64,000 bases of DNA from an uncultured Clostridium sp. (GTDB taxonomy: Bacteria > Bacillota > Clostridia > TANB77 > CAG-508), in assembly GCA_947647595.1 (NCBI GenBank), contig CANSKZ010000005.1, positions 53,569 through 117,568 on the forward strand, given 5' to 3'. Below, one piece after another: positions 45,364 to 45,513 of this stretch. Within the stretch, counting starts at the first letter, position 1, and every line of letters begins with the position of its first letter. The position numbers were made by a program, and so were the translations under genes. A model generated the notes under the pieces. The model ran no database searches and was not told the origin of the DNA. It saw only the letters and a program-made list of their open reading frames with translations.

Positions 45364-45462
45364 TTATCTTTTTAAAACTACATGTGTGTGTGTGTGTGTG
45401 TGTGTGTGTGTGTGTACAGCGCCAACGGTTTTAGCGACTTTTATAAAATTCGTTCTTTTCAT
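45364..45462 (-). CDS. 32-aa micro-ORF containing the (CA)16 tract (His-Thr repeat)
   Basis: AAAAGGAGAACAAAAG-ATG at 45462. Product MKRTNFIKVAKTVGAVHTHTHTHTHTHVVLKR. It lies downstream of a consensus promoter and below the ORF-track size cutoff. Confidence 0.45.
   Translation of the reverse strand: MKRTNFIKVAKTVGAVHTHTHTHTHTHVVLKR
45383..45414. repeat. (TG)16 / (CA)16 dinucleotide microsatellite
   Basis: 32 nt of perfect tg repeats, read directly from the sequence. Confidence 0.99.
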
Positions 45463-45484
45463 CTTTTGTTCTCCTTTTATATTA

Positions 45485-45513
45485 AATATACTTTATCTCC
45501 TAAATTTTGTCAA
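45485..45513 (-). promoter_or_regulatory. Near-consensus sigma-A promoter driving the micro-ORF / pilin-LRR gene
   Basis: Minus strand TTGACA (plus 45508..45513), 17 nt, then TATATT (plus 45485..45490). Confidence 0.55.

Follow-up and report, generated by a model that had tools for sequence, protein, structure and literature searches.

A 33-nucleotide (nt) CA tract in an uncultured Clostridium species is probably the mutable element of a phase-variable transcription attenuator of the Pil1 type. The tract lies in a 64-kb window, by which we mean the whole stretch of DNA analysed (64,000 nt; contig CANSKZ010000005.1, positions 53,569 to 117,568), within a short leader open reading frame (ORF) upstream of a gene for a pilin-like protein with a leucine-rich repeat (LRR) domain, hereafter pilin-LRR. 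Gain or loss of CA units would shift the reading frame of the leader and, with it, the point at which ribosomes stop relative to a terminator-like hairpin located between the leader and the gene. With its 16 units, the locus is predicted from the frame to be OFF or low. All coordinates refer to the window, whose GC content is ~30% and whose minus strand carries most genes, including the leader, the pilin-LRR gene and the island that contains them. Comparison loci are numbered L001-L016, and metagenome runs or contig sets are X1, X2, X3, X4, X8, X22, X25, X26, X27 and X29. The runs that hold window DNA are rodent-gut metagenomes.

A perfect CA tract within a leader ORF

Analysis with Tandem Repeats Finder (TRF) reveals a (TG)16.5 array at 45383..45415 with 100% matches, the sole period-2 array in the 64-kb window. 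Dinucleotide-preserving shuffles of the window (100) were used as background, and the expected count of the (TG)8 core is 0.00. A preliminary description of this DNA, made from the letters alone, had reported a perfect dinucleotide repeat and called it very unusual. The repeat is confirmed, and its rarity holds against the shuffles and within the window; it is not singular, however, but a copy of a cassette family described below.

Read on the minus strand, the (AC)16.5 tract forms codons 16-27 of the 32-codon leader ORF, and its unit length is not a multiple of 3. The outcome of translation depends on the number of units, where the leader has 26-30 amino acids (aa) and ends in HM at a TAG directly after the tract, or has 30-34 aa, or has 56-60 aa. 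Recomputation of these outcomes agrees with the three that had been claimed (32 aa as found, about 60 aa, and a TAG directly after the repeat). Also borne out are the near-consensus promoter on the same strand, with 11 of 12 positions matched, and the strong Shine-Dalgarno (SD) sequence and ATG that open a 32-codon ORF with a central His-Thr repeat (Table 1). The SD and ATG are found in all homologous loci, and an ORF identical to the window leader is called as a gene in L003.

The 3' end of the tract lies 171 nt from the pilin-LRR ATG (45211), in line with the ~170 nt first given, and the tract begins ~70 nt downstream of the -10 element (45490..45485). None of the three frames of the window leader joins the pilin-LRR ORF, as all stop before that gene. 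The preliminary description had proposed a check for an independent pilin-LRR promoter. On the minus strand, no other promoter-like site with at least 9 of 12 matches occurs between the leader promoter and the pilin-LRR start, and none was found 3' of the terminator and before the gene. The absence of a second sigma-70-like site in this interval supports transcription of the gene from the leader promoter.

Table 1. Positions of the leader elements, the downstream gene and the island within the window
Feature	Position	Strand	Basis or remark
Sigma-70-type promoter, TTGACA-17-TATATT	45485..45513	-	11/12 matches; best site of the region; proposed driver of the leader
SD of the leader ORF, AAAAGGAGAA	45469..45478	-	6 nt 5' of the ATG; sequence
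Leader micro-ORF as found, 32 aa, MKRTNFIKVAKTVGAV(HT)5HVVLKR-stop	45364..45462	-	ATG at 45462, TAA at 45366..45364
Perfect (AC)16.5 tract, 33 nt	45383..45415	-	Proposed hypermutable element; TRF, shuffles
TAG stop with tract +1 unit (or -2 units), peptide end HM	45378..45380	-	52 nt 5' of the terminator 5' arm
TAA stop as found (16 units)	45366..45364	-	38 nt 5' of the terminator 5' arm
Small hairpin, AACGCA-ataaa-TGCGTT	45342..45358	-	Just 3' of the short-frame stop; six pairs, mostly kept in homologous leaders
Terminator-like hairpin: 15-bp stem, 31-nt loop, U-run	45263..45325	-	Folding, comparison
Long-frame TAA stop with tract -1 or +2 units, peptide of 58-60 aa	45284..45286	-	In the terminator loop, 4 nt 5' of the 3' arm
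SD of the pilin-LRR gene, AAAAGGAG	45218..45225	-	Sequence
Pilin-LRR gene, 297 aa; pilin-like N-terminal helix RG-ITLIALVITIIVLLILAG and BspA-type LRR domain	44318..45211	-	Pfam
Strain-variable island of ~5.9 kb, headed by the leader	39662..45541	-	Homology ends, contig junctions, depth

A terminator-like hairpin between the leader and the gene

The terminator-like hairpin is built from a 5' arm at 45325..45311 and a 3' arm at 45279..45265, followed by a U7 run to 45263, and its loop holds an inner 5-bp hairpin. For the corresponding 81-nt segment, the folding energy is -22.7 kcal/mol (z -4.83), a stability that 0 of 200 shuffles reached. Stems were ranked by length, as ranking by total energy had chosen spurious A/T pairings. 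In the fold of the 278-nt leader, the CA tract is unpaired in both the minimum free energy (MFE) and the centroid structures.

Comparison of homologous leaders reveals that the structure of the stem is conserved: five of the 15 pairs carry compensatory changes and two carry one-sided changes, with a single broken cell. A long stem and T-run occur at the same place in every related leader that is readable far enough, and those of L009, L012 and L013 are unrelated in sequence (28, 16 and 15 bp, respectively; -27 to -35 kcal/mol). Retention of the stem by compensatory changes, along with its exchange for unrelated stems in other subfamilies, supports a terminator role. RNAalifold on a MAFFT alignment missed the terminator, with the arms misaligned. 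For the region 45150..45650, neither Rfam (including a search by E-value threshold) nor a whole-window scan gave a match at the gathering score.

The preliminary description had instead pointed to the weak hairpin AACGCA-ataaa-TGCGTT between the ORF and the gene. That hairpin is present (45358..45342), but it is not the relevant terminator, given the stronger 15-bp stem at 45325..45263. Its changes among homologous leaders are one-sided G-U, and it is possibly a pause hairpin.

Homologous cassettes and tract polymorphism

The leader recurs at other loci. L003 is 93.7% identical to the window from the promoter -10 region to the start codon and has a 33-nt tract, and its downstream gene is a pilin-LRR homologue of only 52% identity at an unrelated locus beside glgP and mutL. 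Full copies of the window cassette (window, L003 and L016) lie behind three different promoters, as read by eye, where L016 and L004 are the two ends of one 35-kb contig in another assembly. Loci L007-L015 follow the order of a near-consensus promoter, an SD-ATG and a short ORF ending ...CTGT(AC)n, then the gene. The tract measures 31 nt in L007, L008, L009 and L010, 29 nt in L011, 25 nt in L012 and 32 nt in L013-L015. Every tract observed (L003 and L007-L016) is perfect, 25-33 nt long and at the same position in the leader. The genes 3' of homologous leaders are mostly pilin-like (for example MKQNKGITLIALIV, ...RGISLIALVITIIV and ...EKGITLIALVITIIVLL) and are otherwise membrane-anchored or secreted.

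The full order of promoter, SD-ATG, tract, stem with T-run, SD, and pilin-like or membrane-anchored gene is present in all eight tract-bearing loci that are readable to the downstream gene (window, L003, L007, L009, L011, L012, L013 and L015, the leader of L015 being the same as that of L013 over the compared stretch). A pattern scan of metagenomes returned one locus only. In 7 of 7 analysed tract-bearing loci, two frames stop 29-91 nt before the terminator and one frame reaches it. The long frame ends within the loop in the window, L003, L007, L011 and L013, at 8 nt before the stem in L009 and at 15 nt past it in L012. Its register differs between loci, which argues that the position of the stop matters, not the sequence of the peptide.

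Tract length also differs between homologous loci. L011 and L007 are orthologues with shared flanks, yet their tracts measure 29 and 31 nt, respectively, which turns the 69-aa leader of L007 into one with the HM end in L011. A search of a protein collection with the 58-aa frame-shifted peptide identified ~45 related mini-ORFs that share [KE][TS][VL][GA][AT]V-(HT)3-6 and then diverge in frame. Variants within 90%-identity clusters of these mini-ORFs include (HT)5CSFKG versus (HT)5HM-stop, (HT)3 or (HT)4 with SNSRR versus (HT)4HK-stop, (HT)4 versus (HT)5, and a frameshifted RCFSK-stop form. The CSFK... ending corresponds to TGTAGTTTTAAA in a frame other than that of VVLKR-stop.

A repeat-less form of the leader is found at L005 (3786..3872) and L006 (98..184), where the homologue MRNSNNEFNFIRTAKIIGTVSIYAVLKR is followed by its stop and GAGTATATATG replaces (CA)n. 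This leader has 28 aa, ends in AVLKR-stop and keeps the terminator as well as the small hairpin. Its lack of a repeat reflects either the ancestral state or the decay of a former tract.

Proposed switch and its alternatives

In Streptococcus gallolyticus, GCAGA repeats set the frame of the leader-peptide gene upstream of the Pil1 and Pil3 pili (Danne et al. 2014, PMC3894217). Pilus expression is low where the leader stops 39-49 nt short of a premature stem-loop terminator. It is high where a longer, frameshifted leader terminates 4 bp ahead of the hairpin, inside it or past it, as the ribosome keeps the stem from forming; mutations of the leader ATG and ribosome-binding site (RBS) or of the terminator behave as the attenuation model predicts (PMC3894217). 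As a rule for that species, stops at least 28 nt upstream of the terminator go with low expression, and stops next to it, in it or beyond it with high expression. The window holds every anatomical component of a Pil1-type device, namely a promoter with RBS and ATG, a simple sequence repeat (SSR) in the leader, a terminator (in silico) and stops set by the frame. With stops either 38 or 52 nt upstream of the hairpin or in its loop, the window fits the rule derived experimentally in S. gallolyticus.

In the proposed mechanism, transcription would begin at the promoter (45513..45485), and ribosomes would load at the SD and translate the tract-bearing leader ORF. Slipped-strand mispairing would add or remove CA units of 2 nt each, shifting the frame 3' of the tract. 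In two frames, the ribosome would halt 38 or 52 nt before the hairpin (45325..45263), such that the terminator forms and most transcripts end ahead of the gene (OFF or low). In the third frame, a leader of 58-60 aa with its stop in the loop would bring the ribosome over the stem, block the terminator and permit read-through into the gene (ON). That is to say, a change of -1 or +2 units would be expected to turn the locus ON. The chain suggested in the preliminary description, from slippage of a translated leader through the frame to translation-coupled termination of a surface-protein gene, is supported in silico and has a precedent in S. gallolyticus.

Several observations weigh against a Pil1-type switch. 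With their A/U-rich composition and large loops, the stems depart from textbook intrinsic terminators, and a simple terminator scanner did not call them. Promoter-like sites are not commoner in the AT-rich DNA of the window than in shuffles. The pattern of one frame reaching the terminator and two stopping short arises by shuffling at 0.17-0.33 per locus, which is weak for any single locus, and at 1.4e-3 over five partly related loci. The variation in repeat length between strains that had been proposed as a check is seen at homologous loci (29 versus 31 nt and the cluster variants) but not in the exact window cassette, where the tract is 33 nt in 3 of 3 known copies (window, L003 and L016). 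The repeat-less L005 retains a short leader and terminator, and its gene would be permanently low unless otherwise relieved. No Logan contig (k=31) spans a whole tract, including at a 29-nt homologous tract where this was also tried, and host (TG)n k-mers swamp and break these contigs at the tract. Lastly, in X1 and X2 the pilin-LRR gene comes with the right half of the cassette but not with its left half as found in the window, which X22 carries, so the pairing of the leader promoter with the pilin-LRR gene rests on the assembler. A mis-pairing would change the promoter from which the switch is fed but leave the switch as such intact.

We consider it unlikely that the tract phase-varies the gene by another route, whether Rho-dependent polarity on the untranslated leader, changes in mRNA stability or processing that depend on the frame, or structure that occludes the downstream SD. 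Stops that depend on the frame would also alter the length of naked RNA behind the ribosome, and the atypical form of the stems adds to the appeal of such routes. The CA tract is, in our assumption, not of the YC-rich kind that serves as a Rho site, which counts against the Rho route. Repeats in a 5' untranslated region can act by RNA processing, as for Haemophilus influenzae hmw with RNase III (PMC12721329). Unlike the hmw hairpin, however, the present tract is unpaired in the predicted leader fold, and a U-run directly after a strong stem, the signature of intrinsic termination, is present in every locus.

An equally improbable alternative is a conventional, non-stochastic attenuator or plain upstream ORF, where the CA tract is a tolerated passenger and the pilin-like gene uses its own signals. 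The same leader and terminator without a repeat in L005, the statistical weakness of the frame pattern at each locus and the single tract length shared by the three copies of the window cassette are all in keeping with a passenger. In contrast, diverged subfamilies and many assemblies retain perfect tracts of 25-33 nt at one and the same point of the leader, and this persistence argues against a passenger because unselected tracts should shorten or gain interruptions. The frameshifting length variants at orthologous loci and the lack of a promoter-like site 3' of the terminator also favor a Pil1-type attenuator over a passive tract.

It is less probable still that the micro-ORF encodes a functional small peptide in which (His-Thr)n itself matters, for metal binding or as a nascent regulatory peptide, and is tuned by in-frame changes. 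The motif [KE][TS][VL][GA][AT]V-(HT)n is common to dozens of mini-ORFs, and clusters 3, 4 and 5 contain in-frame variants that differ by three units, in keeping with such a peptide. Sequence after the tract is, however, read in different frames between copies and even between strains at one locus; where the conserved motif varies, it is mostly the first or second base of a codon that differs (by-eye reading), and the peptides have no family match.

Three further switch types were rejected. An in-gene contingency locus does not apply, as the tract lies 171 nt before the pilin-LRR ATG and all frames stop earlier; a promoter-spacer SSR switch does not apply, as the tract lies ~70 nt 3' of the -10; and an hmw-type RNase III hairpin does not apply, as neither the MFE nor the centroid fold pairs the tract.

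Beyond the single locus, we tentatively propose, at slightly less than an even chance, that the ~220-bp segment from SD to terminator is a portable phase-variable attenuator module. Its copies would be homogenised, with several per genome switching independently, and would be combined with assorted promoters and pilin-anchored genes in many lineages of gut Clostridia. Such a module would imply a combinatorial, stochastic adhesin repertoire and a Clostridia 'phasome' that operates by leader-peptide attenuation, not by in-gene repeats or DNA inversion. At ~220 bp, the compact cassette may also suit use as a stochastic switch part.

Authenticity and assembly of the tract

The tract is real bacterial sequence and not host contamination, since its junctions are found in independent runs and the same tract is found in several assemblies. 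Contigs of X1 and X2 extend without differences from the pilin-LRR side into the tract (45110..45399 and 45311..45410, respectively), and a 151-nt contig of X22 (45409..45559) extends from the tract end through the promoter region into the terminator of the neighbouring gene. The same tract with homologous flanks is present at at least nine further loci in NCBI, ENA and JGI assemblies. An artefact, be it a mammalian host (CA)n microsatellite or a chimeric metagenome join, is scarcely credible: although all runs holding window DNA are rodent-gut metagenomes with huge host (TG)n depth, and the multi-copy cassette breaks contigs and leaves the tract unbridged by any one of them, both bacterial flanks are joined to the tract in independent runs, the same tract and flanks recur at those further loci, and a promoter joined to the wrong gene would still leave the element in place. 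A chimera mediated by the L002 paralogue described below was considered and rejected.

The cassette is multi-copy, near-identical and longer than short reads, and contigs often end inside it. Both ends of the 35-kb contig CATLEW010000016.1 stop within a cassette (L004 position 1 and L016 position 3761), and several-kb contigs of X1 and X3 likewise terminate at tracts of this kind. In metagenome-assembled genomes (MAGs) from host-rich gut samples, the cassettes break contigs systematically and possibly give rise to mis-joins. If the switch is as proposed, they would explain these breaks and possible promoter-gene mis-joins. In four mouse-gut runs (X25, X26, X27 and X29), a second contig matches the tract and 22-nt flank of L011 (7207..7254) with 3 differences, then continues into other hairpin-1-like sequence. 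This contig belongs to a further paralogue of the cassette within that community or genome.

The downstream gene and its island

The label 'prepilin-LRR' given in the preliminary description is nearly, but not fully, justified. The LRR_5 match lies over its cutoff (E 1.8e-9). At the N-terminus, in contrast, Pfam N_methyl reaches 18.7 bits versus a 21.2-bit cutoff (model positions 1-26), Ala stands at +5 where the canonical residue is Glu, and GspG and pilin N-terminal models match weakly (E 0.01-0.3). Exact-protein look-ups of the pilin-LRR, TyrS and 149-aa proteins returned no record, and a search of a phage collection returned no match. Metagenome depth in every run peaks several-fold at 45114..45187, the first ~25 codons of pilin-LRR that encode the hydrophobic helix, which indicates many paralogous pilin-like genes with different C-terminal domains (LRR, Flg_new, DUF285 and others).

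Pilin-LRR is the first gene of the strain-variable island, followed in order by a Wzy_C-like protein of 545 aa, a 323-aa protein, GT2, a 64-aa protein and a sortase. The closest representative genome is an uncultured Clostridia MAG from a mouse gut catalogue (locus L001). Between 49779 and 45541, L001 matches the window at 96.8% identity; past 45541 it runs into ftsY, and contigs of X1, X4 and X8 depart from the window at 45542 with L001-type sequence. In X1, depth is 12-20x with ~1% differences up to ~39661 and from 45542, and 4-5x with no differences between these positions. An X2 contig (39471..40732) crosses the left junction of the island, and an X22 contig crosses the right junction. A simple 6-kb insertion relative to L001 was rejected, as L001 never rejoins the window. 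ftsY adjoins 45542 in L001, the major strain of X1, X4 and X8 and is absent from the window, which implies that a rearrangement besides insertion separates the strains.

The 545-aa membrane protein (42358..43995), with a sub-threshold match to Wzy_C (O-antigen ligase), lies directly 3' of the pilin-like gene, and GT2 (40781..41473) follows later. L005 has a similar order of pilin-like gene, 79 aa, 593 aa and GT2. We take this layout of pilin-like, Wzy_C-like and GT2 genes to be reminiscent of TfpO/PglL-type loci for pilin O-glycosylation. Directly 3' of the sortase, at 39831..39866, is a 16-bp hairpin with a T-run, and a 9-bp hairpin at 39631..39651 lies near the left boundary of the island; they probably mark the end of the island transcription unit and the junction.

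Neighbours of the island are a 149-aa coiled-coil gene that has a hairpin terminator and, on the plus strand, tyrS and a clpB/clpC-like gene. The coiled-coil protein (45636..46085; L001 6097..6480) has no family match and has a paralogue elsewhere in a related MAG (L002 6019..6336). Its gene contains an internal 21-nt tandem repeat (L001 6157..6235, ~3-3.8 copies), by which the length of the ORF differs between strains (149, 127 and 105 aa). Elsewhere in the window, a T-box leader (109 bits) at 35522..35764 on the minus strand lies upstream of the valyl-tRNA synthetase gene (32794..35523), and tyrS (46152..) has only 66 nt upstream and no T-box match. A 937-aa ORF (35819..38632, minus strand) joins N- and C-terminal membrane domains of DUF2207 with a full ROK-family sugar kinase/regulator domain and looks like an unusual fusion.

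Comparison with known systems

Repeat-driven phase variation is best known in a few pathogens, namely Neisseria, Haemophilus, Helicobacter, Campylobacter and mycoplasmas. In Helicobacter pylori, outer-membrane protein genes carry (CT)n in the 5' coding region, and in-frame translation is ON. The present locus resembles these genes in its long, perfect dinucleotide tract after an N-terminal coding segment, in the shift of frame by slippage and in its surface-protein target. The H. pylori tract, however, lies in the structural gene, whereas the tract here lies in a separate leader ORF 171 nt upstream and its effect would be transcriptional. Promoter-spacer SSR switches, known from H. influenzae hif, where (TA)n separates the -35 from the -10, and from mycoplasma surface-protein genes, likewise place dinucleotide tracts upstream of fimbrial or surface genes for stochastic ON/OFF control, but the present tract is ~70 nt 3' of the -10. 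Clostridioides difficile cwpV phase-varies by site-specific DNA inversion, without a leader peptide. It shares with the proposed switch a host of the class Clostridia and intrinsic terminator formation in a surface-gene leader, and differs in that inversion, not slippage, is the source of variation.

The leader of H. influenzae hmw1A folds into a long hairpin, one arm of which consists of heptamer repeats. RNase III cleaves this hairpin, and each gain in repeat number lowers expression in a graded manner (Rapun-Araiz et al. 2025, PMC12721329). As in the switch proposed here, the SSR is transcribed in the leader of an adhesin gene and acts after initiation. The present tract, in contrast, has no predicted pairing partner and sits in a putatively translated ORF, and its effect would come from frame (period 3), not from length.

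The literature search found coupling of a repeat, a leader peptide and a terminator only for the S. gallolyticus pili, with no other example. The proposed switch is non-homologous to that of S. gallolyticus and of a known but rarely documented kind. Were it confirmed, the mechanism would have evolved independently and be widespread in uncultured commensal Clostridia of the gut, where pilin-anchored LRR adhesins would vary stochastically, with a bearing on gut colonisation and immune evasion.

The differences from Pil1/Pil3 are several. There is no sequence homology, and the repeats are GCAGA in 13-22 units there versus CA over 25-33 nt here. Two of three frames are long in S. gallolyticus versus one of three here. 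The cargo is a sortase-assembled pilus there and a type-IV-pilin-like LRR protein here, and the present device is a near-identical, multi-copy SD-to-terminator cassette behind different promoters, hosted by an uncultured rodent-gut bacterium of the Clostridia. Pil1/Pil3 have been tested experimentally, whereas the present switch is a prediction from sequence. The likeness extends across the whole layout nonetheless. Both systems combine a promoter, an RBS-ATG, a leader ORF with an SSR whose unit length is not divisible by 3, a premature terminator and an adhesin or pilus gene. Terminators of Pil1/Pil3 fold at -18.7 and -28.2 kcal/mol versus -18 to -35 kcal/mol here. In each system, short leaders stop tens of nt early while frameshifted long leaders end at or inside the terminator, and the device is present at more than one locus per genome in both.

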